A stretch of DNA of 64,000 bases from Candidatus Multivoradales bacterium. GTDB taxonomy: Bacteria > Acidobacteriota > Thermoanaerobaculia > Multivoradales > J023. Positions 1 to 36,599 of this stretch are shown here, piece after piece; position 1 is the stretch's first letter; every line of letters begins with the position of its first letter. The notes under the pieces are model-generated. The model did not search any database. It saw only the letters and a program-made list of their open reading frames with translations, and was not told where the DNA came from. The translations under genes were made by a program, and so were the position numbers. The stretch covers positions 1,536,001-1,600,000 of the forward strand of contig CBDFLE010000005.1 in the NCBI GenBank assembly GCA_965248925.1. Direction: 5' to 3'.

Positions 1-3000
1 CCAGTAAGCTGGATCGGTCGCTTCCTCGGCCTCGATCCAAGTCCCGGTGACATTGGAGACGAAGGGGATGCGCGGCGCTTTGAGCACCATCGAAGCGACC
101 AGCTCTTCCAGATCTCGGGCGATCGGTTCCATCATGCTGGAGTGGAAAGCGTGCGAGGTCTGTAAGCGGTGGCTCTCCAAGCCACGGCCGGCGAGCTGCT
201 GCTCGAACTCTTGCAAGGCCTCTTCGGGTCCGGCGACAACACACAGCGCGGCACCGTTGACCGCCGCCAGAGAGAGCTCGCCGCTCAACCCGGCCTGGCA
301 TTCGTCCTCCGCCAGAGGCACCGCGAGCATGCCGCCGGCAGGCAACTCTTGGATCATCCGCGCCCGCAGGGCGACCAGGCAGAGGGCGTCGTCAAGGCTC
401 ATCACGCCGGCCAGACAGGCGGCGACATATTCGCCAAGACTGTAGCCAATCATCGCCTGTGGCCGTATACCCCACTCCATCCACTGCCGGGCCAACGCGT
501 ACTCGATGACGAAGACCGCTGGTTGCGCCAAATCGGTGCGGAAGATCGGCGAGGCCGCCGCTGAATCTGCCCCGTCACGGCCCAGCAAGGAGCGCAGATC
601 GGGGGCAGCCTCCGGCTCGCCATCGCTCACCGCGGCGCCAGAGAACAGCAGCGAGCGGATGTCGAGTCTGAGATAGGGACGCAGCAGCTCGGCGCACTGG
701 TTAATCGCGGCGCGGAAGGCCGACTCCTGCTGGTACAACCCGGCTCCCATGTCGACGTAGTGATCGCCAAGGCCCGGCAGTAGGAAGGTCACCGGTCGTT
801 CACTCGCTCGACTGATGCTGGTCAGCAATCGGCGCGGGGAGACCTTAGTCAGTACTTCGCGGGCATCTTCACCACTGCGACAGACCAAGATCTGCCGGTG
901 CTCCAGGCGTCGCCTGCCAACCTGCAGAGTGAAGGCGACATCGGCCAGAGGGACTTGCGGGGACTTCCCCAAATAACTTGCCAAATTCGCCGTCGCCGCC
1001 GCTAACGCACTCTCGGTCTTGGCTGACAACAGCAGCAGTTGCCAGGGTCGCGAAAGCCCGGCCTCAGCTACCGCTGGCGCCTCCTCAAGCACAAAATGTA
1101 CGTTGGTGCCACCGAGGCCGAGGGCATTGACCGCGGCCCGCCGCGGCTTACCGTTGGAGCACCATTCGCGCCCCTCGGTCTGTACGTAAAAGGGACTGGA
1201 GTCGAAGTCGATCTGCGGATTCGGGCTCTCGAAATGCAGCATCGGTGGCAGCTGCTGGTGATGGAAAGCGCAGGCCATCTTGATCAAGCTGGCGGCTCCC
1301 GAAGCACGATCCATATGGCCGACATTGGTCTTCAGCGAACCAATGCCACAGAACTGGCGTTCGGCGGTCTCACGGCGGTAGGCACGGGTCAAGGCGGTCA
1401 CCTCGATCGGGTCACCGAGCTCGGTGGCAGTTCCGTGAGCCTCGATGTACTCGATCGACTCAGCCGCCACTCCGGCATCCAGCAGCGCGGCGCTCACCGC
1501 TGCCACCTGGCCCTCGACACTCGGCGCGGTGTAACCCACCTTCAGCGACCCGTCGTTGTTCATCGCCGAGCCCTTGATCACGGTGTAGATCGTGTCGCCA
1601 TCAGCAACGGCATCGCCGAGACGCTTGAGGACCAGAATGGCGACACCATTGCTGCTCAGGGCTCCTTTGGCGCGAGCGTCGAAAGTGCGAGTGTGACCGT
1701 CATCAGACTCGATGCCGCCTTCCTGGAAGAGATAGCCCACCGCATGCGGCACCGCTATGCGGGCTCCTCCGGCCAAGGCGATATCGCACTCACCGTCTAG
1801 CAGACTGCGACGGGCCATGTGGGTAGCCACCGCCGAGGTCGAGCAGAAGGTCTGAACGGTCACACTCGGTCCGGTCAGGTTGAGCTTGTACGACACCCGC
1901 GTGGCCAGCGAGTCGTTGGTGTTGCTGATGCCGGCTTGCAAAACCATCGCCGGATTGGTCTCGGCCTGGGCGGAGCGCACCAAGTTGTTAAACAGATAGG
2001 TACTGCTGTTGGTGCCGCCGAACACGCCGATCAAACCGGCATAGCTGCCAGAGTTGTAACCGGCGTGTTCGAGAGCTTCCCAAGAACACTCGAGAAACAG
2101 CCTTTGCTGGGGATCGAGCACGCTGGCTTCCATCGGCGAGAAGCCAAAGAGCTGGGCATCGAACTGATCGATGTCGTCGATTACCGCGCTAGCCCGCACG
2201 TAGTTGGGATCGGCGAGTTCCGCGGCGCTGACTCCAGCCTGCAAAAGCTCTTCTTCGCTGAGTGCCGAGATCGACTCGACCCCCTGCACCAAGTTGCTCC
2301 AGAACTGATCGACATCGGTGGCTCCCGGGAAGCGCCCGGCCATGCCGATGATGGCGACATCATCACGCTCCACCTGCCGGCGGAGGCACTCGCGGCGGCG
2401 GCGCAGCTCACTTTCGGCGGCCGACTCGCTCTCTAACTCCTCCTCTTCGGCATTCAGCAGTCGAGCCAACGAGCGCACGGTGGGAGCCTCGTAGAGCGCC
2501 ACCGGCGACAGCTCGACATCAAGCGCACTTTTGATCTCGTTGACCACTTGCAATCCGATCAACGAGGTGCCGCCCAAGTCAAAGAAGTTGTCGTCGATGC
2601 CAACACTCTCAAGGTTGAGAACTCGCTGCCAGATGTCGCCGATCTCGCGTTCCAGCTCGCTATCGGCGGCAACGTACTCGACACCGAGAACCGGTCGCGA
2701 ATGGCTCGCCACCTGAGACTGCCGCGATTCGGCGATCGCGTCGAACATCTTGTTCACCGAAAAATCCTGGCTGCCTTCGAGCAGAGTCTGGAACTCAAGG
2801 GTCGACACCACCATGCTCGAGAGGTCTCCCGACAAGATACGCTCCACCGCTTCCATGCCCTCGGTGAAGGAGATGCCAAAGCGGCGACGGCTTTCACGGA
2901 AGAACTCCTGCGCTTCCTGGTGGAAGCCCTCGAGTCCCTGCGACCAACTGTCCCACTGCCACTCACCCCAGGCGATCGCGGCCACTCGCCGATGGCGCGA

Positions 3001-6000
3001 AGGCAGTAGGGCGTAACTGTCGAGAAAGGCGTTGGCGGCGGCGTAGTCCACTTGCCCAGGGCCACCGCCAGTGATTCCCGAGGTCGAGGAGAAGAGCAGC
3101 AGGAAATCCAACGGCGGGGCGGTGGACAAAGCCTCTTCGAGGGCCAAGACGCCCTGCACTTTGGGGGCCAGAATCTCGGCCGATAATTGCCGGGTTTTCA
3201 GCTGCACGAGACCCTGCGGCGGAACTGCCGCGGTGTGAATAACTCCGTGGATCGCGCCAAAGTGCTCCAGCGCCTCTGCCACCGCCGCGCCGATCGCCCG
3301 CTGATCGGCGACATCGGCGCTCAGCGCCAGGACCTCGGCACCGGCCGCTTCGAGCGCCAGCACTCCGCGCAGCTTGCGCGCCAGGTCGGTGTCGGTATCT
3401 GCCGCGGCCACAAGCAGCGGCCATTCCTCCCGCGGCGGCAGGGTCGAACGTCCGAGCAACACCAAACGGGCACCTACGCTCCTAAAGAGATGCTCGGCAA
3501 GCGCCATGGCGATGCCACCGAGACCGCCGGTGATCAAATAGACACCCTCGCGACGCCAGGAAGGGCAACCATCCGTCGGCACCGCGGTCGACTGCCTCTC
3601 GTACCGTCGCAGCCAGCGCTCGGCCGAGCGTATAGCCACGATCTGGTCGGCGGGCTCGCCTGCCCTGATCTCCGCAGCCAGCAGAGCGGCGAGGGCCGGA
3701 ACCGCTGGGGCTGCTGGATCGGCGAAATCCGCCAAGGCCACGTCGATCATCCGACAGCTGATGTTCTCGTGCTCCTGGGGAATCACCTTGCACGGCCCCA
3801 TCAACGCTGCCTTGACCGGCTCGACCAAGTCACCTTCCAGCACTCGGAACTGCCGGTTGGAGACCAGCACCAGATCGACGTTCTCAAAACCACCCCGATC
3901 AGCCAACGTCTGGGTTAACAGGATGACGCCATGGAAACCCAAATCGAGGCCCGCTGCGACCTCGGCAACCTCGGCCGGCTGCTGACTTGCCGCCGTAACA
4001 CTCCACAGATGGATAACCCCGCAAGGCACCTGGTGGCCAGTGAGCAGCCGCTCGTAGTCGGCCCGGCGGCCAGGATTGATGGCGTAGGATCCTTCGGCGT
4101 GGCGGATGAAACGATCGCCGGCCGCGACCGTCACCACCTCCTCGCCGACTTCGCGAAGTTGCTCAGCCAGGGCCAATCCCAGACCTTGACCGTCGATCAT
4201 GACCCACCACGGCCGCCCCTCGCCGGACCCCGCGGCGGGCTCAGGAGACGGCAGGGCAAGGCTGTCAACAGCACCAGCGGAGGTCCGCGGCAGGGCTTTC
4301 AGCAGCACCACGGCAGGCACGCTCTGCTCCTCGGACAGCTGCTCGCGGAGGCCGTTTTCGAGGGCACCGACCAAGGTCGCATCCTCCACCTTGGCGACGG
4401 CACGGAGAAAGGCCCGCCGTTGACGATGGCGAATGCTGGGAGCGGGCTCGGGCAGGTCGCGAATGGCGAACAAATTGTAGAGCACCGAGCCTTTGAGCAG
4501 CGGGTCCTGCTCGATAACCACTTGGAATCCACGCTCCTGTAGCAACCGCTCGATCTGTTCCAAGCGACCCTCCAGGTCGTGCACCTCGATGACGATCTGG
4601 CGGATCAATTTCCAATGCTCCTCACGCAAGCCGGCCAGCACCTCGAGCTCTGCTTTCTGCACGTCGATCTTCAGCAGATCAATACAGCCGACCTCGCACT
4701 CGTCGATCACATCCGAGAGCACCCGCAGGCGACATTCGAAAGTCTCACTACGGAAGCGCTCTTCGAGCAGGCCGTCGGCGAAACCCAACAACTCGCCAAC
4801 CCCCTTGATGCCGGCATCGCGCTCGCGCTCCATCATCAACTTGAGAATCTCTTTCTCTTCTTCCTTGTCGGCGTGAAAGGAGGACATTCCCGAACTTTTG
4901 GGATAGAAAGTGAACTCGGCCATCGCCGCACGATCGGCGATGCCAAAATTGAACAATCGGGCATTCACCTGATTGAGAGCGATATTGAGACGCAGCTTGT
5001 CGAACAACGGCGGCGCCGGCTCAAAGGCATAGATCAGAGGGTCTTTGCAGGCTTGGTGGGCAAAGAGGGTGAAGGAACCAATGTTGGCGCCAACATCAAA
5101 CACGCACGCTCCGTCGCGCAGCTCGATGCCATTGCGGCGGTAGATCTCCTTCTCGAAGATATCCTCATAGAAGTGCTCCGCCTCGGTCTGGCCCTGGCAA
5201 ACCACCTCCATGCCGTTGGGCCAGGTCTGCACCCGCTCCCCTTCGACCACGGCAGCAGGTAGTTCGGTCGGTACCACGTAGGCCACCAGACTCTCGCCGG
5301 CGCCGCGAGGCTCGGTGTGAACCTCACGGACGCCTGACTGGGCGAGCAGCAGCGCCGTCACCTGCTGCTCTCGCTCACCGCTCCCGACCACCACCTCGGC
5401 CGAATCGGCGGCGCTGTCCTCGGCCTCTTCGCGATGCCACACCGGGGCGTAGAACCAGTCGTCATAGGCCTCCTTGTGCAGGTCGGCAAGGTGGCGCTCG
5501 ATCACCGAACTCTGTGGCGCGGCCTTGGCGCTGGTCTGGAGCCAATAGCTCTGGCGCTCGAAGGGGTAGCCAGGCAGCGGTATGCGGCCGCGTTGCAAAC
5601 GGTGGGTCGCTGCCCAGTCGACCGCGACACCGGTCATCCACAGCCGACCCATGCTAGCGAGCAAGAAGGCTCGATCCGGCTGCCGGTTGTACAAGGCCCG
5701 CAGGGTCGATGCGGTCCGCGCGCCGCGCGCCGCATCACACTCGGGATGCTGTTTGGCGAAGGAGATTAGGGATTGGCCTGGTCCGACTTCCACCAGTGTC
5801 GAGTCGCTGCTCAGGAGTTGGCCAAGACCGTCGCTGAATCTCACCGTCTCGCAGAGATGGCGGATCCAGTAGCTCGGGTCGACCGCTTCTTCAGGTCGGA
5901 TCCAGGTGCCGGTGACATTCGACACGTAGGGAATCTGTGGCGCGGCGAGTTCGAAACTCTCGATCAGCTCTCGTAACGGCGTGGCGATCGCCGCCATCAT

Positions 6001-12861: not shown

Positions 12862-12883
12862 GCCTCGATCTCCGTGGTTTCGT

Positions 12884-27800: not shown

Positions 27801-30800
27801 CCACCGAGACCGCCGGTGATCAGATAAACACCACCCTGACGCAAACCTGCCAGCGCCGATTCTGCTGGCTCTACTGCGACCTGCTGGAATCGCTCCACCC
27901 AGCGTTCCTTGGCGCGGTAGGCAACCCTCTCTGGATGCCCGCCAGCTGCCCTGGCGGTGAGTTCCTCCACAGTCGAGTCGACCAGGAGTTGCAGCGCCGC
28001 GGCATCGTCCGGCGGTGGCTCCAGGTCGACGCTATGGCAGCTCAACCACGGCAGCTCCAGGGGAAGCACCCGGCACGGACCGGTCAGCAGCGCCTTCTCT
28101 GGCTGGCTCGCCGGGTCAGCCGGCAACCTGTGCAAGCCGCTCGAAACCACTGTCAGGTCAATATCCGCGGCATCTCGTACTCGGTCCACGGCCTGTGCCA
28201 AGAACAGCAAGCTGTAGAAGCTCAGCTCGATCTGCCTCTCGCGCGCCGCGGAATCCACGCCGCAGTGGTCGAAGTTCCACAGATGGACAATCTGCTGTGG
28301 AACCTGGTCCAGGGCAGCGAGCAACGAGCGATAGTCTTCGACTGCAGTGGGATCGATGGTCCAAACACCGTCGTCCGAGTTCGAAAACGCCGCCCCCGCC
28401 AGCACCCGATACACCCGGTGCCCGTCCCTCTCCAACCGCGCGGCGACGGCCTGGCCAAGACCTGCCCGATCGAGAAAAAACAGCCATGTACGCGCCTCGA
28501 CCTCTCCTCCGTCCGCACCTTCCGACGGACCCAGACACCACTGCGGAACCGTGAACCAATCCTCGAATTCGAGCCGCGGGTCGCTATCGTCAAACTTCTC
28601 CAAGAGCTGTGCTGCCGCGGAATCAGCGGCTCGCGGAGGACCAAACCAGAAGCTCTGGCGCTCAAAGGGGTAAGTCGGTAAGTCGACGAAAGATCGTTGC
28701 TCCCCGCGGTTGAACGCCCGCCAGTCGATTTCCACTCCGGCCAGCCACAGCTGACCGAGATTGTGCAAGAGGGCCGCTTGCGGCGCCAACTGACCGACCA
28801 CCAACGAGCAGAGAACTTGCGACTCGACACTCTGCCCAAGTTTCCGCGCCAGTCCGCTCAGCATGTCGTCCGGACCGATCTCCAACAGCAGCGCACCTTC
28901 CTCACCCGCCGCGTCACGCAGCACTGCGGTGCAGGATTCCACCGATGCCGAGCGGCTCCATAAATCGGAATTCTCCGCCTCCTCGAGATCGACCTGGCGC
29001 CCCGTCGCCAGCGACAGCAGTGGGATGCGGGGCACCAGCAACTCAATCTCAGCAGACTCCGCGAGACTCCTATCCACCAAGGCAGAGCCCACCGCCACTC
29101 GCAACAGAGCCTCTTCGAGAGTGAAAACACCGGCTAAGCAGGCGGCGACATCGAGACCCACTCCTACCCCGATCAACCGTCCTGGCTCGACCCCCCAAGC
29201 CATCCACATTCTGGCCAGTGAGTACTGAATCGAGAATTGCCTTGGCGCCGCCACCTGCGGTTTAGCAGTGGCCTTCAACCAATCAATGAGTTCTAGACCG
29301 GTGTGCGCACGCAGCAGGTCCCGACAATGATCCAGCTGGCGGCGGAAATAACCCTCGACCGAGTAGAGTTCAAGGACGGGTTCGAGCGATGCCAACTTTG
29401 AATCGGCGAACAAGAAGCTCACCGAGGGCTGGTGCGGGCTGACCGTAGAACTCAGAACGCGCTCGGCATCGCCCTCGCGGAGGGCTGCGGCGGCCTCCGC
29501 GGCGCCACGGCACAGCACCATACGTCGGCGGTCGAGAGCCTCGCGACCGAGCTGGGAAGTAAAGGCAACATCGGCAAGTTCGACTTCCGTACTCTCCAGG
29601 AAATCCGCCAGCTCAGCGCTCACCGCTGCCAGCGCGCTGCCGGTCTTTGCCGAACACAACAGCAACTGCCATAGGCGGGATTCCCCAGAGGGCGCCACGG
29701 CCGGCGGTTCCTCGAGGACCACATGGGCATTGGTACCGCCGAAACCGAAGGAGCTCACTCCGGCCAGCGCCGGCGGCGCATCTTCCCTGCCACCTAACTC
29801 CCATTCCTCAAGGCCATCGACCACCCGCAATGCCTGCCCGGCCAGCAAAGCGTTCGCGGTGTCAGGGTGAAAATGCAAGCTCGGCGGCACCCGTCGATGC
29901 TGAAAAGCGAGCACTACTTTGATCAGACCGGCGATGCCCGCCGCGGCCTCGAGATGGCCTAGATTGCTCTTTACCGAGCCGATAGCGCAGGGCTCGGCGT
30001 CCCTCCGATCCACTCCGACTACCGCTCCCAAAGCAGACAACTCGATAGAATCGCCAAGTTCGGTTCCGGTACCGTGAGTCTCAACATAATGCACCGCTGC
30101 TGGCGATACACCGGCCTGATTGTAGGCTTGGCGTAACACCTCCTCTTGAGCAAAACGATTGGGCGCCGTCAGACCATTACTGGCTCCATCCTGATTGACT
30201 GCCACGCCGCGAATCTGGGAGTAAATCCGATTGCCATCGGCGAGCGCACTACTTAGGGGCTTGAGCAGAACCAGGCCAACGCCCTCACTGCGAACGTAGC
30301 CATCGGCAGCCGCGGCGAACACCTTGCACCGGCCGTCGGCAGCCATCAATCCCGCTTTGCTAAAGACCATCGTCGTCTCTGGCAACAGGATCAGGTTGAC
30401 CCCTCCTGCCAGCGCCAGAGTCGACTCTCCGGAACGCAGGCTCTGGCAAGCCGCGTGAACCGCCACTAAAGACGATGAACACGCGGTGTCGAGAGCCAGG
30501 CTCGGCCCTTGAAAGTCAAACGAGTAAGAGATCCGGTTGGCAGCGATCGAGCCGGCGTTACCGGTCCCGACGTAGGCGTCAATCTGCGCTCGGTCGCGAA
30601 TCTGCAGCTGGCCGTAGTCGCTCGTCGCCAGGCCGACAAAGACCCCCGTTTTGGAACCGCGCAGCCGCCCCGGCGCCAACGCAGCATGCTCGAAAGTCTG
30701 CCAAGCGACCTCGAGCAACAACCGCTGCTGTGGATCCATGCGTTCGGCTTCGCGCGGCGAGATGCCGAAGAAGCGCGCGTCGAATAGATCCACGCGGTCG

Positions 30801-31366
30801 AGGAAGCCACCCCAGCAAGTGCTCATTTTGCCGGCGGCGGTCAAATCACGATCGAACAGCTGCTCCACCGGCCAACGATCAGCCGGCACTTCACCAATCG
30901 CGTCAATGCCGTCTCGTAACAGAGGCCAGAACTCGGTCAAATGCCCGGCGCCCGGAAACCTGCAACCCATGCCGATGATCGCTATCGGTTCGTCGGCATC
31001 TAGACTGGAGACCGCGACTCTCGGCGACGGTGCCGGGTCGTCGCTAGTAGCCAGTTGCACCGCCAAGTGTCCTGCCAACGCATCGATCGTCGGATGGTCG
31101 TAGAGCAGCGTCGCCTCCAGCCCCAGTCCCAACCATTCCTCGAGCTCTCCGGAGAGACCCACCGTCTCGCGAGAGGCCAAACCGTAGCTGGAAAAAGGCT
31201 CTCGGACATCGACCTCCTGCGCCGTGCAGCCCAAGATTTCCGCCACACGATGGGCCAGCCAGAGCCGAAGCTCCGAGGCACTCGGAACGCCCCCCTGCCG
31301 GCCCGCGCCAGCGGGCGAATCCACCCCAGCATCAGACTTGGCTCCTCGCTTACCTTTCCTAGCCAT
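12884..31366 (-). CDS. Modular type I PKS, 6160 aa: ACP(load)-KS1-AT0-KR-ACP / KS2-AT0-KR-ACP / KS3-AT-KR-ACP / KS4-AT-KR-ACP
   Basis: N-terminal ACP (YGLASRE). KS1 DTACSSS/HGTGT/GHLEAAAG; KS2 QTHCSTS; KS3 and KS4 QTFCSTS. AT sites GVGVG and GQGLG (no Ser), then GYSLG and GHSMG. Four KRs with ITGGLGG and a catalytic YxxxN. Four carriers with LGG(N/T)SL. No DH or ER motifs seen. Confidence 0.97.
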   Translation of the reverse strand: MARKGKRGAKSDAGVDSPAGAGRQGGVPSASELRLWLAHRVAEILGCTAQEVDVREPFSSYGLASRETVGLSGELEEWLGLGLEATLLYDHPTIDALAGHLAVQLATSDDPAPSPRVAVSSLDADEPIAIIGMGCRFPGAGHLTEFWPLLRDGIDAIGEVPADRWPVEQLFDRDLTAAGKMSTCWGGFLDRVDLFDARFFGISPREAERMDPQQRLLLEVAWQTFEHAALAPGRLRGSKTGVFVGLATSDYGQLQIRDRAQIDAYVGTGNAGSIAANRISYSFDFQGPSLALDTACSSSLVAVHAACQSLRSGESTLALAGGVNLILLPETTMVFSKAGLMAADGRCKVFAAAADGYVRSEGVGLVLLKPLSSALADGNRIYSQIRGVAVNQDGASNGLTAPNRFAQEEVLRQAYNQAGVSPAAVHYVETHGTGTELGDSIELSALGAVVGVDRRDAEPCAIGSVKSNLGHLEAAAGIAGLIKVVLAFQHRRVPPSLHFHPDTANALLAGQALRVVDGLEEWELGGREDAPPALAGVSSFGFGGTNAHVVLEEPPAVAPSGESRLWQLLLCSAKTGSALAAVSAELADFLESTEVELADVAFTSQLGREALDRRRMVLCRGAAEAAAALREGDAERVLSSTVSPHQPSVSFLFADSKLASLEPVLELYSVEGYFRRQLDHCRDLLRAHTGLELIDWLKATAKPQVAAPRQFSIQYSLARMWMAWGVEPGRLIGVGVGLDVAACLAGVFTLEEALLRVAVGSALVDRSLAESAEIELLVPRIPLLSLATGRQVDLEEAENSDLWSRSASVESCTAVLRDAAGEEGALLLEIGPDDMLSGLARKLGQSVESQVLCSLVVGQLAPQAALLHNLGQLWLAGVEIDWRAFNRGEQRSFVDLPTYPFERQSFWFGPPRAADSAAAQLLEKFDDSDPRLEFEDWFTVPQWCLGPSEGADGGEVEARTWLFFLDRAGLGQAVAARLERDGHRVYRVLAGAAFSNSDDGVWTIDPTAVEDYRSLLAALDQVPQQIVHLWNFDHCGVDSAARERQIELSFYSLLFLAQAVDRVRDAADIDLTVVSSGLHRLPADPASQPEKALLTGPCRVLPLELPWLSCHSVDLEPPPDDAAALQLLVDSTVEELTARAAGGHPERVAYRAKERWVERFQQVAVEPAESALAGLRQGGVYLITGGLGGVGLGLAEELARSCAARIVLLGRSALPQRDTWQEVVEREAAAADGPEERIRKILAIEKLGSEVLILQADVADSLAMGRAIQQATERFGGIDGVFHAAGIPGAGLVRFKTRQMVARALAAKVQGTRVLEEVLASLELDFVVLFSSVIAVTGGGIGQLDYCAANAFLDAMAVNSDLPGRVLSINWGWWQWGLWDQSLAGFRPEFQTYLKTCRARYGVDFEQGMRALVWCLGQPEPQLIVSPRAFAIVQRDSRRATAANLFGLTAEPVSSPGLAAGIHPRPELSTRHVPPASELEQQISEIWRRGLGLDRVGRNDNFFDLGGNSLIGQQLTLELASTLGLKIDEVSLYEAPTVATLAQVLSRGSEPREAPTQDVDGVHRGGYQHEDIAIVGMAGRFPGARSSQQLWQLLVEGREGISTFSDPELLAAGVAPELIAQDNYVKSRPVLDDVDLFDASFFDFTPSEARLTDPQQRLFLECSWEALEDAGQDPEQFGGAIGVFAGTNISTYWLSQLADPEMADMATVLSTVISNDKDSLSTRTAYKLDLRGPAVSVQTHCSTSLVAVHMARQSLLSGDSDLVLAGGSAIRVPVRVGYLYQEGGTDSADGHTRSFDAAARGTPLGDGVAVVALKRLSDARRDGNQIYAVIKGSAINNDGSLKVGFHAPSVDGQAAVVAAALAEAGVEAESVSYVEAHGTATPLGDPIEFAALTKAFRQTTKRLGFCGIGSAKSNLGHLDKASGVTGLIKTALALRHRRIPATLHFERPNPKLHLSASPFFVVSELTEWESVSGPRRAGVNSLGMGGTNVHVVLEEAPSEAPSGPARQWQLLLVSARTDSALATVCDNLCGYLEENPSSSLADVAYTLMLGRRAMEHRRLVVADQAGQAVSSLRRGDSEQIRSRHHDEAPASVTFQFTDLTAGADLWGEECYRREKVYREVVDQCAERFGFELGPDRELESAPPWLAAALLFANQLALGRQLLSWGIRPSALQGQGLGEAAAACLAGVLSLGDAADLVGRRARELAQVASVTPNGVAPGESLTESLGAPAIPLLSPSGIRLSAQEVTDPAYWRRWMSRPLDCPDATEQEADDRYRLLLEIGVGQQLDGGSDLSATAECNLAVLGFESTTGSGEQLDEIARLLRTVGELWLRGVDIDGAAFFAAQQRRRLALPTYPFERQSYWVESSAGPSAPDVPAELKVYLAEAPAAFDDWLYSPQWRPQPLPLLAADPLSDKADPWLLLVDSGGLGAALAARLEQLGQVVWVVEVGAEFVRHNDRSWTLRPAELEDFRQLLADLDAAPRRIVHLWSLAVEEVANSIPEDCLVDQLEYGFYSLLACIQGLGELRDATEIELTVVSSGIHRITGEEVLHPQSATLLGPCRVAPLELPLLRCRSLDLDLHGAAGEASWSQSGELRALLDELMAEPLETAEQGGHTVAAYRQGERWVETFVPLPAPEEVVTPLRQGGVYLITGGLGGLGLGLAEHLVRHFAAKLVLVSRTRPGQVADRLERLQELEDLGAEVLVLVADVTVEVELRRAVEQALEHFGKIDGVVHAAGVPGAGLAQLKTREMAAQVLAPKIQGSWVLDRVFADHQLDFMALFSSVVALTGGGPGQVDYCAANAFLDAFAAQRSARGQRTIAIDWNEWQWDAWQEGLTDFAPQMRNFFAASRQRFGIDFDRGGRAFERALAQAEARIVVTPRRLPTLFELGRKFTLDNLLRGFGVVAAPARTGDTPPPDLSVEELERRVAEILQRLLGVEQVGVDDNFFDLGGNSLLGLQVTAELKQVVGRDVPATLLYEAPTASTLARALAPAAVAAGGAKPRLAVRRRRATGPEVESHIAIIGMAGRFPGARNTTELWRNLQQGVESVTFFSDEELRAAGVEEALLRDPTYVKAGAVLEDIDRFDAELFGYSPREAELMDPQHRFFLEAAWEALENAGYDSQQYGGAIGVFGGSNISTYLLNQIISDPQTAAAVDPMQAGIVNSADSLTTKVSYKLGLTGPSIAVQTFCSTSAVANHLACRSLARGDCDLALAGGVRIAVPHRVGYQWQTGSIDSPDGHTRAFDAAGQGAVVGNAVALLVLKRLDEAQADGDQIYAVIRGTAMNNDGSLKVGYTAPSVDTQAQVIAAAMVEAGVEPATLSYVEAHGTGTELGDPIEVAALSKAFADVGREFSCALGSVKTNMGHLDRAAGATSLIKTALALHHSQIPASLHFKRPNPETRLAESPFCVNTELTPWPAGEAPRRAGVNALGIGGTNVHFVLEEAPPAAPASPSRAAQLVVLSAKTEAALEQLTDRLAEHLQQHPEAEVADFTHTLQRGRRLLPHRRVLVGKSVEDLGSALAQRDPQRLFSYFDQSTNRSVAFLFPGLGDQYVGMAQGLYDSEPTFRRHLDLCAEKLVPWLDHGLLELLFPAAQQGGGEAAKPDLRSLLRGGVPSDDASRLLNRTANVHPAIFAVEYSLAQLLIEWVGEPQAMAGYSLGEYTAACLSGVLSLDAALELVTLRAQMIDQLPPGGMLAVPLSRREVEPLLGSELSLAAVNGPAMSVLAGSEAAIAALAEHLTAKEVACRRLATSHAFHSYMMEPIVEPFTRLLEKTELRRPRIPFVSNVTGRWILDEEAMDPAYWAHHLCRPVLFHDCLQKLIDGGDRVLVEVGPGQSLGSMVKQHPAYSPQTAQPVLATLPAAFLRQPDQDLLLRTLGKLWLAGVRIDWTAFYRYEKRRRVPLPTYPFADQRFWIGPEQGRLRTAAVEVKGDPEEWFYRPIWRPTDLSPSDPSNSGEEPAAATSWLLLADALSVGRCLAERLTSAGHRVTTVVAGAAFERQSASEFVLDPGQADQYQDLLKTLHNEDRLPSRVVDLWSLSGSEAVRSSPFEETQERGFYSLIHLVRAFCEVAATRPWAIDVVANGLWSVAGTEKLWPEKATLLGPCKVIPQEYPQVACRVIDLEVTDSVTEAESLSERLRDELAADLPDRMVALRASGRWVQDFESAPLASPEGLDKLRREGVYLITGGLGGIGFVLAEYLARELDAKLILTGRSELPARDSWAEYVDNAGIADELAHKIRRLQRLEELGAEVLVLAADVADPERMQQVVEQAEERFGTIDGLLHAAGLVRPEAFGLLAEISREKCVAHFRPKVQGLWVLEQVLADRKLDFRLLFSSTSAVLGGLTMGAYASANLFMDAFAEQRNRRSPGRWTTVNWDIWEVHGDELRELREHGSEADLGEFRMMLSEEGRGMTAEQGIEAFRRVLASSATHLVHSPSDLGTRLEQWIEHRAVVETVSPSLYARPNLQTPFVAAQSFGERRIAEIFQRILGVEEVGLHDNYFDLGGTSLTAIQVTVALQEEFGGQISPNLLFAAPSVSELAKRLLPQTAEQPTAALAAAVERRRQRPSTDGRQEIAIIGMAGRFPGARDVEEFWSNLEAGVETLSIFSDEELLAAGVPEEEFKDPNYVRVRPVLDGVELFDSAFFGFSPREAELMDPQHRVFLETAWTALEHAGYDAQRYAGAISLFAGSNISTYLLGMLGSPEFMDSVSELETAITNDRDSLTTRVSYKLNLRGPSMAVQTFCSTSLVATHLGAQSLLTGESDIALAGGVSIRVPQKVGYRFDPGGQDSPDGHTRSFDAKAQGTVFGDGVGVVVMKRLADALADRDTIHAVIKGSAINNDGSLKIGYTAPSIEGQAEAIAMALDHAGVRAESIGYVEAHGSATDLGDPVEAAALTKAFRLGTEACGFCAIGSVKSNFGHLDRAAGVAGLIKTVLALREEVLPPTLHFEEPNPKIELAASPFFVNNKRLEWKSNGRPRRAGVNSLGVGGTNVHVVLEEAPQRQPSGVSRAWQLLPISARTVAARDTASSSLASLLLRESMGSTAKSPLPDVAFTLQMGRREFEQRRFAVTRDAEEAVAQLAAPDADGVSCGRARKMPPRVVFLFPTGDHYLDMSAGLYQQEAVFRQEVDRCAELLEDELDGIDLRQLLFSGMPADAVARTKSPPSLRHLLGRGGGERDEAAGPLNELRFSQPATFVVEYALARLLMSWGILPQALIGHSMGEYVAACLAGVFSLEGALRLVARRSRLMQERMPAGGILAVPLPEEEVLELLSDELSLAAVNAPSVSLVSGPKAALDALQQKLESRDLICQRLAANHLIHSPLLAEIGDEVRELLREAQLAPPQIPFVSNLTGTWIEPAQATDPEYWIRHMCETVRFADGVRTLLEEPEAALIEVGPGQGLCSFVKLHPECRRGHPRVIAPTLRPAHETRPDQAFLLDTVGRLWAVGVGIDWSGFSAGEERHRLPLPTYPFERQRFWIEPLSLRQIQAGGAALAGAEESAEEGAVSLDKFDKNPEPSQWFFVPVWNQTVPSFSVSSGQGHADAAAVEGGSCLVLGGEKGLGSRLVERLVQGGLQVTQVTLAESFTRLGRGTYALDPCQQDQIRQLLAEMKSDQRLPDRVIHLWSLSDEAGAQADEIEAALDRGFYPLISLAQAMGDICADRALRLAVVSDGLQSVTGEENLRVEVSPLIGPCRVIPQEYPQTTCHSIDVVLPPADSPQEGELLEQLFAELAGSAGETMIALRGGRRWVQEFEPLELPAGVGQTPLRREGVYLITGGLGGIGLAVARHLFATRGARLALLSRSGLPTRETWAEQLEVEGSVADKIHQVMALEEAGAEVLVLTADVADRRQMQRAVDQTLEAFGTLNGVFHTAGVPAAGLMQLSTREAAAAVLTPKVQGTLVLAQVTAQLPLDFMLLFSSMNSATGGGPGQVDYSAANAFLDAFAVARSQAGQRVLALDWGEWQWDAWQEGLMGFDPLIQAFFKKNRRKFGVSFEEGMTAIERTLSVPVPRVVVSTVDFRVMLRLSRHFNVATILEAVRADQGERPFHPRPLLGVSFVAPASKLEQQIAGIWRQLLRLEEIGVHDSFFELGGNSLLGVDLTRIMKDALRVEIPMYALYESSTVRAMTEFVEQSGDQSEHLDQRRERGASRRQRAQQQRRRGRTQRGPQA

Positions 31367-33149
31367 GAGCTGACCTTCCCTTCCGATCGTTGCCCACAGG
31401 TCCTTGAGACCCAGCGACCGTCGTCACCGTTCCGTCAAGGAACTGGCGGCGGCAGACTTGGCGACAGACTTTGCCACTGGTGGTCTTGGCGAGACCTCTG
31501 GGGGGCAACAGACAAATCCGCTGCACCCGCACACCAAACGCCTCTGACACTGTCCGGCGGATCACGGCGCAAATGGCGTCAGCGTCTACCTCAGATCTTC
31601 GGCCCATCACTTCAGCCATCAGAATTAGCTTCTCCTGACGCCTCTCAGGAATAGAAAACGCGACGCAACAACCAGATCGGACAGAGGGATGGCAGCGCTC
31701 CACCAAGCGTTCAATGTCTTGGGGAAAATGATTGCGTCCATCGATGATGATCAAGTCCTTGATGCGTCCTGTAATGAACAACTCACCTTCCTTGAGGAAG
31801 CCACAATCGCCGGTGCGCAGAAAAGGGCCCGCCGCGGATCCCGCCAGCCGTGCGCCAAAGCTCTCGCGCGTCTCCTGCGGCAAATTCCAATAGCCCTGTG
31901 CAACACTGCCTCCGGCGAGCCAAATCTCACCCGGCCGGTCTTCCGCACAGCGCCTCGAAGCGGCATCGACAATGGCTACCTCGAGCCCAGATCCAAGCCG
32001 CCCACAGGCCACCAAGCGTCGCACCGTGGCAGTCTCCGGAGTAGCCTCGACAATGCGGTCTTGAGCCAAAGCCTCGGCATCAACAGGCAAAAAAACCGGC
32101 TCCGTTCCGCGCTGGCCGCAGGAAACCAGCAACGTCCCTTCCGCCAGCCCGTAGACCGGGCGCAGCGCCCCCCGTTTCAGTCCACACGATGCAAAACGGT
32201 CGCCGAACTCCTCCACGGTTTCGGCGAACACCGGCTCAGCGCCATTGAATGCGGTTCTCCAACTACTAAGATCCAGACCTGAACACCGACCAGCAGTAGC
32301 CTTGCGGCCGCAGAGTTCATAAGCAAAATTCGGCCCACCACTAATGGTTACTCGATAGCGAGAGATACCCTCCAGCCAGCGCAACGGGCGCTGCAAGAAA
32401 GCCAGCGGTGACATCAGATAGGAAGGAAAGCCGCAGAAAACCGGCAAAAGAACGCCCTGAATCAGCCCCATGTCATGCGAGGCCGGCAGCCACGAAAAGC
32501 CGACACCGGACTCATCCTCCTCCGACACCTGCGCCATATAGGAAAGATTGTGAAAGAGATTTCGGTGGCTGACCTTCACTCCCTTGGGCGAGCTGGTGGA
32601 GCCAGAGGTGTATTGTAAGAAAGCGACGGAGTCCAGAGCGATCGGTTCATCGAGGCACGCGGTCGCCGATTCGCGGCCGACCTCGTCAGTCAGCAACCAG
32701 GCGACACCCCGCGCCGCCTCAATCTGCCGTAACAAACGCTCGAGAATCGGCTGTTGTCGAGCCGTCGTCAGGACGATCTTAGGCGCACAATCGGCAAAGA
32801 TCGTTGCCAACCTCGAGAAAGCACTTGCCGGCCTCTTCGGATGAGGCAAGAGACTCGGTACCGCGAACAGCCCAGCACGTAGACAACCAAAGAAAGCCGT
32901 AACAAACTCCAAACCGGGAGGATAGAGTAGCACCGCCCGCTCACCACTCAGTCCCTTCTGCTGCAGCCAAGCACCGATCGACATCGCCCTTTGGTCTAGC
33001 TCACCATAGGTCAACCAGGCGTTTTCTTCTTCGCCATGAGCTAGAAAAGTGTAGGCCCTATCACTTTTCCGCTCGCTCGCTCTGCGTCGAAGAATACTTA
33101 GCAGGTTGTTGCCATCTCCGGTCGAGTCACCAGCCGTCTCAATTCTCAT
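31359..33149 (-). CDS. Fatty acyl-AMP ligase (FAAL), PKS starter loading
   Basis: FLQYTSGSTSSPKGV, SWLPASHDMGLI, GGPNFAYELC, YGLAEGTL, FLRTGDCGF, GRIKDLII and KTTSGK are FAAL-type motifs. Start placed at ATG 33149 (AAGGAG upstream); the ORF track extends to 33245. The stop overlaps the PKS start by 8 bp. Confidence 0.93.
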   Translation of the reverse strand: MRIETAGDSTGDGNNLLSILRRRASERKSDRAYTFLAHGEEENAWLTYGELDQRAMSIGAWLQQKGLSGERAVLLYPPGLEFVTAFFGCLRAGLFAVPSLLPHPKRPASAFSRLATIFADCAPKIVLTTARQQPILERLLRQIEAARGVAWLLTDEVGRESATACLDEPIALDSVAFLQYTSGSTSSPKGVKVSHRNLFHNLSYMAQVSEEDESGVGFSWLPASHDMGLIQGVLLPVFCGFPSYLMSPLAFLQRPLRWLEGISRYRVTISGGPNFAYELCGRKATAGRCSGLDLSSWRTAFNGAEPVFAETVEEFGDRFASCGLKRGALRPVYGLAEGTLLVSCGQRGTEPVFLPVDAEALAQDRIVEATPETATVRRLVACGRLGSGLEVAIVDAASRRCAEDRPGEIWLAGGSVAQGYWNLPQETRESFGARLAGSAAGPFLRTGDCGFLKEGELFITGRIKDLIIIDGRNHFPQDIERLVERCHPSVRSGCCVAFSIPERRQEKLILMAEVMGRRSEVDADAICAVIRRTVSEAFGVRVQRICLLPPRGLAKTTSGKVCRQVCRRQFLDGTVTTVAGSQGPVGNDRKGRSAHG

Positions 33150-33407
33150 TGCAGCCCGAACTCCTTGAAACTCTGTGTGGATTCCATCAAGCAACAGCGC
33201 CATCCGACGCTGGCGATACCACCTACACATACCGTCAGCACACACTCAAGTGCCGCACAGCAGTGAAACGTACTGACGCTTGCTATGTACAGAACTGGCA
33301 AACAAACCATCGTCAAGCCGCGGAAAGACAGCCTTTCGGCAACGCTATCCGGAACTCGAGGTAGCGAGTAGAAATCAGCAGAAACGAAGGGTTATCGGCC
33401 ACAGGAG

Positions 33408-33419: not shown

Positions 33420-34085
33420 AGCGGTTGGCTCAAACACTCAGAGCCGCAGACTTCTGACTACCCCTCAGCCAGAACCGAGCATGAATGCCCGTTGTTATAC
33501 GACCAGATTCTAGGGAGGAACTCGGGAGGATGCCTGCTGGCCAAACGTAGCCGAAGGCACGTTCGGTAAAGGCTGATAGTCCGATCGAGGGAGGAACTGG
33601 TTTTCCCGGATGGGCGTTCGGGGAGGAGAAAAGGGCAAATCTTCAAAGGTAAATCTCATGTTGTACGAGCCTCGGTCAATATCCGCTGGGGGATCGTTGT
33701 GTAGTGCTAGGAAACATAACATACCCGCACTTCGGGCCCTCGTCGATCCGCAAAGATCAGTGAAAATCTCTGAATCTGCGTATCGCGTTAGCGATCCCAA
33801 CAGAACCCTAGGTGAACGCCAGTGAAGCTGCGGAGGCTATGAAATCGAGCCAGCAACCTCCTCGACTAGAACAACTCGGGAGCGGCATCCGTAGGCCTAC
33901 TGAGAAGAACCTCTCGCTAGGGCCAGTAGTACTCAACTGGCGGCCGAGTTGTCTGCGGTTGCAGTGCAAGACGACTCATTGATCGGAGAAATTGCTCTCC
34001 ACTCTTACACCATAGACGTCAATCTAGTGTTACACTCTCGCGCGGTTCCTCTGCTCTCACTTGAGTATGCAGGATGCCTGCTGTC

Positions 34086-34134
34086 GACAACTTGTGGACA
34101 ACCTATTGACAACCTAACAGTTACGCAGTAAGAC
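34086..34134 (+). promoter_or_regulatory. Putative sigma70-type promoter with three 11-bp-phased GACAAC direct repeats
   Basis: GACAAC at 34086, 34097 and 34108. Perfect TTGACA at 34106-34111, a 17-nt spacer, then a weak -10 TAAGAC at 34129-34134, upstream of the fkbK-like gene. Confidence 0.4.
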
Positions 34135-34136
34135 AA

Positions 34137-34226
34137 CAAGAGAGCAAGAGAGCAAGAGAGCAAGAGAGCAAGAGAGCAAGAGAGCAAGAGAGCAAGAGAG
34201 CAAGAGAGCAAGAGAGCAAGAGAGCA
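34137..34226 (+). repeat. Perfect octamer tandem repeat (CAAGAGAG)x11 + CA
   Basis: Read directly; ends 4 nt before the GTG start at 34231. Confidence 0.97.
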
Positions 34227-34230
34227 TTTC

Positions 34231-35097
34231 GTGAAAGAGAACAAACCTTTGCAGTTTCCCACCGTGGGCGTGGTTGGTGCCGGCGTCATGGGTATCGGGC
34301 TGGCTCAGAATCTGGCCCAGACCGGACACCAGGTTCTGCTCAATGACCGGACGCAAGAAGACCTCGACAAGGCTCTTCTCTCGATCCGCCAGAATCTCCG
34401 CCTGCACCGCTTCTTTACCGGCGAAGAGCCCGCCTACAGCACCGCCGACGCACTGGCCAAGATTACCTCCACAGTTGACCTCGAGGACTTGGCGCAAGCT
34501 GACTTCGTAGTCGAGAACGTCACCGAGAAGTGGGCCGCCAAAGAGCAGGTCCATGGACGTTTGAATAAGATCTGCCCCAAGTGCGTGGTCGGGGTCAACA
34601 CTTCAGCCCTCTCCATCACCCGAGTCGGTTCCCTATACGACCGCCCCGAACGGATCGTCGGCATGCACTTCATGAATCCAGTGCCACTCAAACCGGTGGT
34701 CGAGGTGATTCGCGGCCACCACACGTCTGCGCAATGTCTGGAGACTACCCACAACTTCTTGGCCGAAATCGGCAAGGAAGGCATAGTCGTCAACGACATG
34801 CCCGGCTTCGTCTCCAATCGAGTGCTCATGTTGACTGTCAACGAGGCGATTTTCCTGGTGCAAGATCAAGTCGCGCCCGCCGCCGACATCGACCGCATCT
34901 TCAAGACCTGCTTCGGACACAAGATGGGCCCTCTGGAAACCGCCGACCTGATCGGTCTCGACACCATTCTCTACTCGCTCGAGGTTCTCTACGAGAGCTA
35001 CTGCGACAGCAAGTACCGTCCGTCGCCGCTGTTGAAGAAGATGGTAGACGCCGGCCTGCATGGTCGAAAAAGCGGAGAGGGCTTTTACAACTACTGA
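34231..35097 (+). CDS. 3-hydroxyacyl-CoA dehydrogenase family protein, FkbK/ZmaG-like (glyceryl-ACP oxidation)
   Basis: Rossmann GVVGAGVMG, VVENVTE, NTSALSIT, GMHFMNP, PGFVSNR, MGPLETADLIGLD. Adjacent to an ACP and FkbH. Confidence 0.92.
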   Translation: MKENKPLQFPTVGVVGAGVMGIGLAQNLAQTGHQVLLNDRTQEDLDKALLSIRQNLRLHRFFTGEEPAYSTADALAKITSTVDLEDLAQADFVVENVTEKWAAKEQVHGRLNKICPKCVVGVNTSALSITRVGSLYDRPERIVGMHFMNPVPLKPVVEVIRGHHTSAQCLETTHNFLAEIGKEGIVVNDMPGFVSNRVLMLTVNEAIFLVQDQVAPAADIDRIFKTCFGHKMGPLETADLIGLDTILYSLEVLYESYCDSKYRPSPLLKKMVDAGLHGRKSGEGFYNY

Positions 35098-35207
35098 GCC
35101 GCCACCGCGAAGCTTCGAACCTGCATAGGGCGGGGTTTTATCAACTCAGCCTCATCGGGATCATGCAGAGTCAACATCAACATCCAGCCATCGCACCGTG
35201 AGGATCA

Positions 35208-35456
35208 ATGGACAGAAAGAACAAGATACGAACTTTCTTGGCCGGCTTTTTTCGCAACGTAGAGGTTGCGGACGACGATGACATCTTCGCCAAGGGGTTC
35301 GTCAACTCCTTGCTCGCCTTACAGCTCGTCGGATTCCTCGAGAAGGAATTCAAGATCACCATCGAGGACGAAGATCTCGATTTCGACAATTTTCGTACAA
35401 TCTGTTCCATCGATAGTTTGATTGCTCGGAAGTTACCGCAGCCGGTGGAAGCCTGA
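35208..35456 (+). CDS. Discrete acyl carrier protein, FkbJ/ZmaD-like (hydroxy-/methoxymalonyl-ACP type)
   Basis: 82 aa, DDDDIFAKGFVNSLLALQLVGFLEKEFKITIEDEDL..DNFRTI; the G.VNSL motif is typical of extender-unit ACPs. Confidence 0.9.
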   Translation: MDRKNKIRTFLAGFFRNVEVADDDDIFAKGFVNSLLALQLVGFLEKEFKITIEDEDLDFDNFRTICSIDSLIARKLPQPVEA

Positions 35457-35516
35457 GGCCTCCTTCGTCTAATTTTTCAATAGTGCCGCTGCCCAATCTT
35501 CGCAATAGGTGAGAGT

Positions 35517-36599
35517 ATGAAAGCCTCCAGCGCCCGACCCGATCGCCCCCAGTCTCGCAACCCGGCCCAGCATCTCCCAGCCTTGAAAGTCCTGGTGTGG
35601 GACCTGGATCACACTCTCTGGGACGGAGTGCTCTCAGAGGGAGACGAGGTTCAACCGCGACCCGGCGTCCGTCAGGCTCTGGAGACTTTGGATGAGCGCG
35701 GCATCCTACTCTCGGTGGCGAGTAAGAATGACTTTGAGCCGACCATGACTCGACTCAAGGAAATCTCACTAGAACACTTCTTCCTCTACCCGCAAATCGG
35801 CTGGGGGCGCAAATCCGCGGCCATCGAACGAATCGCGACGGCGATCAATGTCGGTGTCGACGCGGTGGGCTTCATCGACGATCAGCCCTTCGAGCGCGAG
35901 GAGGTGAGCCATTCCTTGCCGCTGGTGAGAACCTATGATGCGAACCAGATCGAAGCGCTAGTCGCCAAGCCCGAACTCAAACCTCGTTTCATTACCGGCG
36001 ATTCGGCTAAGCGGCGTGGCATGTATCAGGCCGATCAGGTCCGCCAGTCGATAGAAGATGACTTCGACGGACCTACGGAGGAGTTCCTGGCAAGCCTCGA
36101 CATGCGATTTACTCTCGGCGCAGCCCAGCGTGAAGATCTCCAGCGGGCCGAGGAACTCACCGTCCGGACGCACCAGCTCAACACTACCGGCTACACCTAC
36201 GACTACGAGGATCTCGATCGGTTTCGCCAGTCCGACAATCATCTTCTGCTGATTGCCGGATTGGAAGACAAATACGGTACTTACGGCAATATCGGGTTGG
36301 CACTGATCGACCGGACCACCAAAATTTGGAGCCTTCGCCTGCTCTTGATGTCGTGCCGGGTGATGGCGCGAGGAGTAGGGTCGGTGATGATCCAGTACAT
36401 CCTTCGCGCGGCCAAGAGTCACGGCGCTCGCCTGCAAGCTGAATTTCTTCCCACCGACCGCAATCGGCCAATGCTAGTGACCTATAAATTTGCCGGCTTC
36501 CGGGAAGTCGGCGAGCGCGACGGCATGAAGGTCTTCGAGCATCCCCTCGAGAACTTGCAGCCCTACCCCGACTACATCGAGCTGACCACCATTGACTGA
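35517..36599 (+). CDS. fkbH: FkbH-like HAD-IIIC glyceryl transferase/phosphatase
   Basis: KVLVWDLDHTLWDG, SVASKN, FIDDQPFERE, RTHQLN, EDKYGTYG, LLMSCRV. Confidence 0.95.
   Translation: MKASSARPDRPQSRNPAQHLPALKVLVWDLDHTLWDGVLSEGDEVQPRPGVRQALETLDERGILLSVASKNDFEPTMTRLKEISLEHFFLYPQIGWGRKSAAIERIATAINVGVDAVGFIDDQPFEREEVSHSLPLVRTYDANQIEALVAKPELKPRFITGDSAKRRGMYQADQVRQSIEDDFDGPTEEFLASLDMRFTLGAAQREDLQRAEELTVRTHQLNTTGYTYDYEDLDRFRQSDNHLLLIAGLEDKYGTYGNIGLALIDRTTKIWSLRLLLMSCRVMARGVGSVMIQYILRAAKSHGARLQAEFLPTDRNRPMLVTYKFAGFREVGERDGMKVFEHPLENLQPYPDYIELTTID

Follow-up and report, generated by a model that had tools for sequence, protein, structure and literature searches.

What does a bacterium make with a polyketide assembly line in which the ketoreductase (KR) is the only reductive domain? 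The question is raised by a stretch of 64,000 nucleotides (hereafter the window; C5:1536001-1600000) in the genome of a Candidatus Multivoradales bacterium of the Acidobacteriota, class Thermoanaerobaculia (8.0 Mb, 6 contigs, 97% complete), where a FAAL (fatty acyl-AMP ligase) precedes a polyketide synthase (PKS) of KR-only modules and a divergent cassette of hydroxymalonyl supply genes. C5 denotes the window's own contig, C6 another contig of the same genome and G000 the source genome, and other G and L codes stand for the genomes and loci of relatives; positions without a prefix are those of the window. From the sequences we give a probability of about 0.6 to the reading that modules 2-7 add four to six glycolate units to a fatty acyl chain supplied by the FAAL, followed by a peptide cap. 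That all six modules add glycolate, so that a fatty acid and a cyclic peptide would be joined by a 12-carbon contiguous, mono-O-methylated polyol whose stereochemistry could be read from the KR order, is a more tentative proposal, which we rate somewhat below even odds. The longer, peptide-capped form of polyol appears to be undescribed; the chain-building chemistry is already known from the antifungal butyrolactol A.

Organization of the assembly line

The genes lie on the minus strand in the order FAAL, PKS1 (a loading acyl carrier protein, ACP, and four modules), PKS2 (three modules) and a six-module nonribosomal peptide synthetase (NRPS) with a thioesterase (TE). A preliminary description of the window had recognised a FAAL, a loading ACP and at least seven modules, all complete ones KR-only, with one embedded FkbM methyltransferase (MT) and a divergent FkbK-ACP-FkbH cassette. 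Each of these elements was found again, and the modules number exactly seven, including the end of module 7 left of the window. The description had passed over the loss of two acyltransferases (AT1 and AT2), the lack of an FkbI gene between the ACP and FkbH, and the 6795-aa NRPS with TE after PKS2. Left of the window, where it had advised looking for a release domain, NRPS modules and a trans-AT, six NRPS modules and the TE were present; no free AT of the GYS type described below was found genome-wide. With FAAL, loading ACP, PKS, NRPS with TE and peptide exporter all present, the cluster is a FAAL-initiated PKS-NRPS lipopeptide cluster.

The stand-alone FAAL (31359..33245, minus strand, probable start ATG at 33149) was identified by profile and PDB matches, and its top PDB matches include the named fatty acyl-AMP ligases FadD23, FadD32, FadD28 and 3PBK. 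PKS1 (12884-31366, minus strand, 6160 aa) starts with the loading ACP (31052..31285, Pfam) and PKS2, on the same strand, starts near 12858 and ends 2261 bases left of the window (C5:1533739; 5089 aa from the first in-frame start). Each module consists of ketosynthase (KS), AT, KR and ACP. Module 1 (26732..30991) has an ordinary KS, a dead AT and a type I KR, and module 2 (22397..26659) has a polyol-clade KS with the motif GHLDK, again a dead AT and a type I KR. Modules 3 (17747..22327; KS GHLDR, AT GYSLG/HAFH, KR type II) and 4 (12992..17668; KS GHLDR, AT GHSMG/HLIH, KR type I) complete PKS1. PKS2 holds module 5 (8293..12840; KS GHMDR, AT GHSLG/RAVH, KR type II), module 6 (2449..8223; KS GHLDR, AT GYSLG/IAAH, an inserted FkbM O-MT, KR type I) and module 7, of which the KS (GHMDR) and AT (GYSLG/HAFH) lie at 1..2364 and the type II KR and ACP left of the window. 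ATs 4 and 5 are of GYS lineage with altered motifs.

Ketosynthases and ketoreductases

Pfam profiles run over all seven modules, with the part of module 7 outside the window, detected KS, AT, KR and ACP only, and neither a dehydratase (DH) nor an enoylreductase (ER) family in any of the seven. Catalytic residues are intact throughout, as Cys-His-His is kept in all seven KSs and the NADPH motif, Lys and Tyr in all seven KRs. Each KR would leave a hydroxyl.

KS3 to KS7 share the motif GH(L/M)DR, where KS2 has DK and ordinary KSs have DA, DT or EA. This signature was followed in 77 loci retrieved by alignment with our own KSs and in the 120 best proteins, also from a KS search, both parsed by motif. 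In the 77 loci, kin included, a GH.DR KS followed 17 of 18 modules with a GYS-type AT, 0 of 13 with a GHS-type AT and 0 of 58 NRPS modules; it was seen after a dead, unparsed or missing AT in 5/8 cases and in 5/27 where the upstream part was unseen. In the 120 proteins the DR KS came after 73 of 76 GYS-AT modules, 3 of 6 GHS-AT modules and all 38 modules without an AT motif. In a tree of 149 KS domains KS2-7 fell in one clade (support 0.93) together with three of the four KSs of the polyol modules of Streptomyces cattleya; our KS1 and the ZmaA KSs of zwittermicin lay outside it, and KS2 grouped with KSs that follow malonyl-type ATs.

The KRs of modules 1-7 read I, I, II, I, II, I, II, and among adjacent KR pairs in related proteins type II was followed by type I in 42/48. 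Typing as A or B by the LDD and W motifs gave no call, hence no configuration is predicted; the two types probably set opposite configurations.

The butyrolactol polyol modules are the closest characterised reference. Butyrolactol A consists of a lipophilic tail and eight contiguous oxygenated carbons, and C1-C8 derive from four glycolytic C2 units, being labelled by glucose and not by acetate; four Zma-type genes adjoin its PKS (PMC5355916). Butyrolactols A and B are also products of S. cattleya, whose cluster is similar (PMC11575545, which gives BGC0001537 as the MIBiG entry of the Streptomyces butyrolactol PKS); the glycolate labelling was done in another producer. We took the cluster on pSCAT as the butyrolactol cluster of S. 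cattleya from gene order and sizes in comparison to Table 2 of PMC5355916. Its last four modules read KS, dead AT and KR I; DR-type KS, AT GYSVG/HAFH and KR II; KS, AT GYSLG/HAFH and KR I; and DR-type KS, dead AT and KR II. They are followed by FkbK-ACP-FkbI-FkbH, and two of the three KSs after a glycolate module carry DR. Modules 3, 4, 5 and 7 of our array are 40-46% identical over ~1550 aa to the butyrolactol bimodule, in comparison to 33-36% over ~920 aa to the other modules of that cluster. Judged by these sequences, the array is one that works like the butyrolactol polyol PKS.

Acyltransferases and extender units

In AT1 and AT2 the catalytic Ser is gone, as is the greater part of the small subdomain; the Ser motif is missing in 44 of 240 related modules as well. 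Among the five intact ATs, AT3, AT6 and AT7 have GYSLG (3/5), and ATs 4 and 5 have the GHS motifs given above. GYS is listed for both ATs of zwittermicin that use ACP-bound extenders and GHS for those that use CoA-bound ones (Table 2 of PMC4207774), and the top PDB match of AT6 was ZmaA-AT. A tree of 148 ATs placed the five intact ones outside the GHS malonyl clade (support 1.00). A lineage score from two hidden Markov models (HMMs), with the H/Y position masked, was +33 for AT3, +16 for AT4, +26 for AT5, +43 for AT6 and +0.6 for AT7, and for S. cattleya +60 and +61 for the polyol ATs and -16 for the malonyl ATs; since the score misclassifies ZmaA-AT (see below), it is taken as a measure of lineage and not of specificity. 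At 14 lineage positions, AT5 has 11 GYS-type residues against one malonyl-type, and AT4 seven against three. The ATs could not be told apart by the RXR/MXW carrier motif. Two records opened among 435 plasmid matches of AT6 were AT-ACP-FkbM proteins with GYSLG/HAFH on Streptomyces plasmids, both inside FkbK-ACP-FkbI-FkbH cassettes.

On these sequences the case for glycolate is strong at modules 3, 6 and 7 and weaker at modules 4 and 5, where the extender choice of the ATs is uncertain. At module 2 we infer glycolate by analogy with butyrolactol. Since the four butyrolactol modules give four glycolate units, the AT-less modules of the polyol clade are presumably loaded in trans. In a published domain table of the butyrolactol cluster the second module of 10-16 and 10-18 are likewise without AT, and the two GYS ATs are marked 'AT(m)', as are the malonyl modules of the tail (PMC5932044); with this label, such clusters are easily misread as 1,3-polyols.

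Predicted supply of hydroxymalonyl-ACP and an unlinked FkbI

The divergent cassette (34231-36599, plus strand) encodes a 3-hydroxyacyl dehydrogenase of FkbK/ZmaG type (34231..35097, profile match), a stand-alone ACP of FkbJ/ZmaD type (35208..35456, profile match) and the glyceryl-ACP loading enzyme FkbH/ZmaN (35517..36599; TIGR01686, 263 bits against a cut-off of 147). The preliminary description had taken these three genes as sufficient for a hydroxymalonyl-type unit. This does not stand, as the characterised route to hydroxymalonyl-ACP has four genes (PMC5355916). Comparison of cassettes placed FkbI, in most relatives, where our locus has a gap of 60 bp (35457..35516), and no FkbI was found in that gap or beside the cluster. 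Without it the three genes cannot finish hydroxymalonyl-ACP, so the fourth must come from an unlinked locus. A GlcD-like FAD oxidase at 41636-43039, beyond the two-component system that flanks the cassette, was discarded as a candidate.

By identity and tree position the sole FkbI-type gene of the genome was located at C6:2106288-2107436 (minus strand; L042:10288-11436). Of nine acyl-CoA dehydrogenase matches it alone is close to the eight cassette FkbIs with which they were compared (55-62% identity, against 29-40% for the others). In a tree of 42 sequences it nests among cassette FkbIs, ZmaE and the butyrolactol enzyme (0.97, 0.99), apart from the housekeeping enzymes. Its top PDB matches are general acyl-CoA dehydrogenases, with FkbI 1R2J ranking low. 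The gene is an orphan, with an RPE65-type gene and a porin as neighbours and an ISL3 transposase ~3 kb away.

The pairing of FkbH with FkbI was followed through 61 genomes. FkbH matched at E 0.001 or better in 19 and as a strong stand-alone gene in 17 (one partial, at a contig end), and an FkbI-type gene of at least 55% identity was present in all 17. The 18th match of the FkbI search (49%) came from a genome without FkbH, and one genome (81% complete) had an FkbH fragment without FkbI. Relatives G012 and G055 also have the three-gene cassette and an intact solo FkbI, and in G017 and G019 FkbI lies near FkbK on another contig. In the source genome the only FkbH, the only FkbJ-type ACP and the only GYS ATs are all inside the cluster. 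Genes for aminomalonyl supply (a free Ser A domain, a second ACP and a second dehydrogenase) were not found: FkbJ-type ACPs and FkbI-type genes number one each in the genome, and a free GYS AT is missing. Expressing the cluster by itself would probably fail, because FkbI is encoded elsewhere.

Methyltransferase, peptide synthetase, export and kinase

The FkbM insert of module 6 (4219..5346, core 4459-5220, minus strand; PF05050 E 1.7e-15, TIGR01444 above cut-off) is flanked by remnants of NRPS adenylation (A) subdomains. Over 384 aa, both flanks included, it is 41% identical to an MT-interrupted A domain at C5:2256314-2257438, and its core is 48-53% identical to MTs of extender cassettes. A stand-alone O-MT, as in the methoxymalonyl supply of FK520, was not found in the cassette; the MT sits within module 6. 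It most likely makes one O-methyl group, at C4 or C5.

The NRPS (C5:1513355-1533742, 6795 aa), left of the window, comprises a TubC_N docking domain, six modules of condensation (C), A and thiolation (T) domains as assembled, and the TE; no epimerization (E) or dual E/C domain was found in it. Signatures taken from the alignment are DSEIAGTV (A1), DIWEITADD (A2), DVFFIGGTF (A3 and A5), DAFFLGVTF (A4) and DVQFFAHVV (A6). The best single-domain PDB match of A2 was PvdL, one module of which takes 2,4-diaminobutyrate (Dab). NRPS modules 3-5 (~C5:1517900-1527800) are 90-95% identical at the nucleotide level over kilobases, which points to a recent module duplication; modules 3 and 5 share the A signature and module 4 differs, and the PKS genes have no such repeats. 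Between the last carrier and the TE (residues ~6459-6500) lies a stub of ~40 residues resembling the start of a C domain, 40% identical to real C starts, and its sequence suggests that a seventh NRPS module was deleted.

Further left are an ABC exporter of the cyclic-peptide family (C5:1511594-1513327; TIGR01194, 436 bits against a cut-off of 286) and an APH-family kinase (C5:1510533-1511579; PF01636 E 2e-27). The exporter has 577 aa and is without a peptidase extension, whereas the zwittermicin exporter has 1027 aa. The kinase most likely phosphorylates the polyol for self-protection, a role for which the inactivating kinase ComG of corramycin is an analogue (PMC10996006). Hydrolases or peptidases were not found among the annotated open reading frames between HtpG and the two-component system.

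Proposed biosynthesis and alternative explanations

In the proposed pathway the FAAL would activate a fatty acid and load it onto the N-terminal ACP, and module 1 would probably add malonyl, loaded in trans. The FkbH, ACP and FkbK of the cluster, with the unlinked FkbI, would make hydroxymalonyl-ACP, and the GYS-type ATs 3, 6 and 7 would load their own modules and, as proposed for butyrolactol, the AT-less one. The MT of module 6 would methylate one oxygen. If all six modules take glycolate, C2-C13 would form 12 contiguous oxygenated carbons, followed by C14 as CH2 and a hydroxyl at C15. The chain would then pass to the six NRPS modules, each adding an L-residue, in the order X-Dab-small aliphatic-Ile-small aliphatic-Pro as predicted from specificity codes. 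The TE would release the product, perhaps with the Dab side chain closing a lactam, and export would fall to the ABC transporter. The product would be a secreted three-block amphiphile and, by analogy, most likely a membrane-directed antimicrobial. The preliminary description had expected a fatty acyl chain extended into a dense, partly O-methylated polyol; this part agrees with the KS, AT and KR lineages shared with butyrolactol, and the plain lipid-polyol that it foresaw is not supported, as six NRPS modules follow.

Several observations weigh against this reading. The DR signature is not absolute, as the GHS-AT modules of the 120 proteins show (three of six precede a DR KS); one butyrolactol KS after a hydroxymalonyl module and both ZmaA KSs are without it; and the KS-retrieved sets are biased to our own sequences and contain kin, so that their counts overstate the association. 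In ATs 4 and 5 the His of GHSxG has returned, and their specificity loops are odd (HLIH, RAVH). The two-HMM score places ZmaA-AT, a proven hydroxymalonyl enzyme, as malonyl-like (-37), and AT7 is neutral on it. A fully hydrophobic MXW carrier motif is present in none of the five intact ATs. For the peptide, A2-A6 are presumably Dab, Val/Ala-like (A3, A5), Ile (A4) and Pro (A6), by specificity codes only, and no paper on these codes was found in the literature searched. The kinase is only 23-37% like the kinases of related loci.

The most serious competitor, in our view an unlikely one, is a mixed use of extenders, with glycolate at modules 3, 6 and 7 only, modules 4 and 5 switched to malonyl or another unit, and malonyl loaded onto modules 1 and 2 by FabD or the other trans-AT of the genome. 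Such a line would yield a lipopeptide whose 1,3-polyol is interspersed with short blocks of 1,2-diol. The GHS motifs of ATs 4 and 5 would fit it, as would the genome's FabD and free GHSLG AT (C6:397315) without a free GYS AT, the grouping of KS2 with KSs after malonyl-type ATs, and a butyrolactol shunt product with malonyl at the last module (PMC11575545), which is AT-less in our parse. On the other hand the products of modules 2, 4 and 5 are handed to KS3, KS5 and KS6, all three of them polyol-clade KSs with the DR signature; GYS-lineage residues predominate in both ATs, and the AT-less modules of that clade add glycolate in butyrolactol. A decaying or stalled cluster, either without extender supply or with a cassette giving a half-oxidised glyceryl unit used otherwise, seems improbable. 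It would account for the absence of FkbI from the cluster and the nearby transposase of its orphan, for two dead ATs and for the C-domain stub, yet all frames are open, the catalytic residues of KS, KR and ACP are intact, the AT Ser motif is also missing in two of the four butyrolactol polyol modules and in related modules at the rate given above, and G012 and G055 likewise keep an intact solo FkbI with a three-gene cassette.

We see least room for a prodrug or phosphorylated design, a far more remote idea in which the lipid, or the lipid-polyol, serves as a handle for export and is then discarded, as has been proposed for corramycin, or the phosphate is kept in the mature product. Corramycin has an active FAAL and no lipid in the isolated compound (PMC10099666), and APH-like genes stand between FAAL and PKS in two Thermoanaerobaculia clusters, one of which was read to its end without an NRPS. 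Against removal of a handle stand the missing hydrolase or peptidase in the stretch named above and the exporter without a peptidase extension.

Surroundings of the cluster

The GC content is 49-59% in the FAAL, cassette, exporter, kinase and permease genes, in comparison to 62% for the genome; the permease, of ADOP type, follows the kinase and precedes HtpG. Sequencing runs that contain the DNA number four, all from one study, and no RNA run is listed among them. Between FAAL and FkbK lies a divergent intergenic region of ~1 kb (33246-34230) with lower GC and a short simple tandem repeat, and no regulator gene was found within the cluster. A sensor kinase, a response regulator and a small secreted His-rich protein (36572-39406, minus strand) converge on FkbH and give no sign of cluster membership. 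At 50362-59187 a B12-binding radical SAM gene is divergent from GT4 glycosyltransferases and a methyltransferase-DUF4214 fusion, resembling a surface-glycan locus. The genome has three further large biosynthetic clusters (C5:2186000-2296000, C6:5111000-5186000 and C6:338000-400000). A FAAL starts two of them, which are NRPS lines with cyclic-peptide exporters; one of the two has an A domain interrupted by an MT. The remaining one is an apparent trans-AT PKS-NRPS with the free AT mentioned above.

Comparison with related arrays and known systems

No orthologous cluster was found in 401 genomes of the class, where the best KS3 identity was 65% (best four candidates per genome); it was 53-66% in the 77 loci, and the best 120 proteins gave 47-56%. 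Written as a DNA pattern, which also admits Ser codons, the KS motif matched 57 of 300 genomes of the order (control 0), and G000 was alone among the 300, many of them fragmented assemblies, in having four matches on one contig. Similar KR-only arrays occur in Chloroflexota, Acidobacteriota and Actinomycetota, and the named related proteins come from Herpetosiphon, Dictyobacter, Tengunoibacter and Virgisporangium. In an Anaerolineales metagenome-assembled genome (MAG) a FAAL comes with one longer module, which has additional domains between its AT and KR, and with six KR-only modules whose ATs are GYS-type or dead; a four-gene cassette, a single C-A-T-TE module and an ABC gene also belong to the locus. 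FAAL-APH-PKS arrays are present in two Thermoanaerobaculia MAGs, L135-L137 (G062:C105:31917-54816) and L132 (G061), and their sequences make them candidates for membrane lipid-polyols. At its end the G062 array has a dead AT and a KS that lacks the catalytic Cys, with no NRPS, and its FkbK-ACP-FkbI-FkbH cassette lies on another contig. Three actinomycete loci (L053, L057 and L058, Jatrophihabitans and Amycolatopsis included) have three polyol modules and then a four-gene cassette, and are candidates for acyl-hexitol-like products. Four compact and conserved Nonomuraea loci (L059, L095, L109 and L112; ~7200-19700) have two polyol-clade modules together with an APH-like kinase, ABC genes and a distant acyl-CoA dehydrogenase; the DR signature is there already in the first KS, and from a hydroxylated starter these loci may make a short sugar-like product that carries phosphate.

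The preliminary description did not recognise the architecture as a characterised cluster, and we likewise found no characterised match to a FAAL with seven KR-only and six NRPS modules among the systems compared (butyrolactol and zwittermicin by sequence, corramycin by description). A FAAL-polyol-peptide product was not found in the literature searched, a scope that leaves out most subscription papers and supplements, and the main text of a FAAL review is without the word 'polyol' (PMC11837247). Herpetosiphon aurantiacus has two bimodular PKSs with the same KS, AT and KR signatures. Its pks-nrps5 is a 16-PKS/7-NRPS cluster with hydroxymalonyl-ACP genes and a product only predicted ('macrolide') (PMC3368417), in which the two proteins may lie.

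Zwittermicin A shares with our locus the supply genes (43-51% identity; orphan FkbI 42% to ZmaE), the GYS AT, the type II KR and the cyclic-peptide exporter. Its PKS-NRPS takes one hydroxymalonyl unit only, and it has an aminomalonyl cassette and the free AT ZmaF, which have no counterpart here, and its KSs lie outside the polyol clade; a zwittermicin-type aminopolyol was rejected on the missing supply and free AT. Corramycin of Corallococcus shares the FAAL start, a sugar-like, O-methylated hydroxy-acyl linker in a peptide and an inactivating kinase (PMC10099666; PMC10996006). It is set apart, by description only, in that one PKS module builds the linker and FkbH is an in-line domain loading glycerate (PMC10099666). 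The in-line FAAL-ACP-C-HAD-T glycerate module of corramycin and vioprolide was set aside as well, FkbH being stand-alone here.

Butyrolactol remains the nearest system. Shared are a lipophilic tail with a contiguous polyol from tandem KR-only modules, the clade to which the KSs belong, ATs with GYS/HAFH, polyol modules that are in part AT-less, alternating KR types and a FkbK-ACP-(FkbI)-FkbH supply. A PKS-built sugar-like head on a lipid tail, which the preliminary description put forward as a candidate new pathway, is not new chemistry, since butyrolactol A already has one. Its tail comes from DH/ER modules on a valine-derived starter and is a polyene, whereas here the tail comes from the FAAL and DH and ER are absent. 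Six candidate glycolate modules stand against four, an embedded O-MT against none near the butyrolactol cluster, six NRPS modules with TE against a lactone end, and an unlinked FkbI against a four-gene cassette beside the PKS. On tail origin, release and cassette, the locus was rejected as a butyrolactol cluster proper. The 2017 butyrolactol paper knew no structural relatives, and PKS-built contiguous polyols are rare in print. The fungal flippase Apt1-Cdc50 is a target that butyrolactol A blocks, and echinocandins regain their activity with it (PMC11741340), an antifungal action that makes a longer, peptide-capped analogue a sensible antimicrobial target. With this assembly line it can be tested in what way a cis-AT PKS gets an ACP-bound extender onto its AT-less modules, and what configuration each KR type sets beside an alpha-hydroxyl. 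Three sequence markers, the GYS-type AT, the GH.DR KS and the paired KR types, recover related arrays in all three phyla. If all six modules do take glycolate, the polyol would be half as long again as that of butyrolactol, completed by an enzyme encoded elsewhere in the genome, and would represent a family of 'polyketide sugar' lipids and lipopeptides that is spread over several phyla and is read as malonyl by standard AT prediction.

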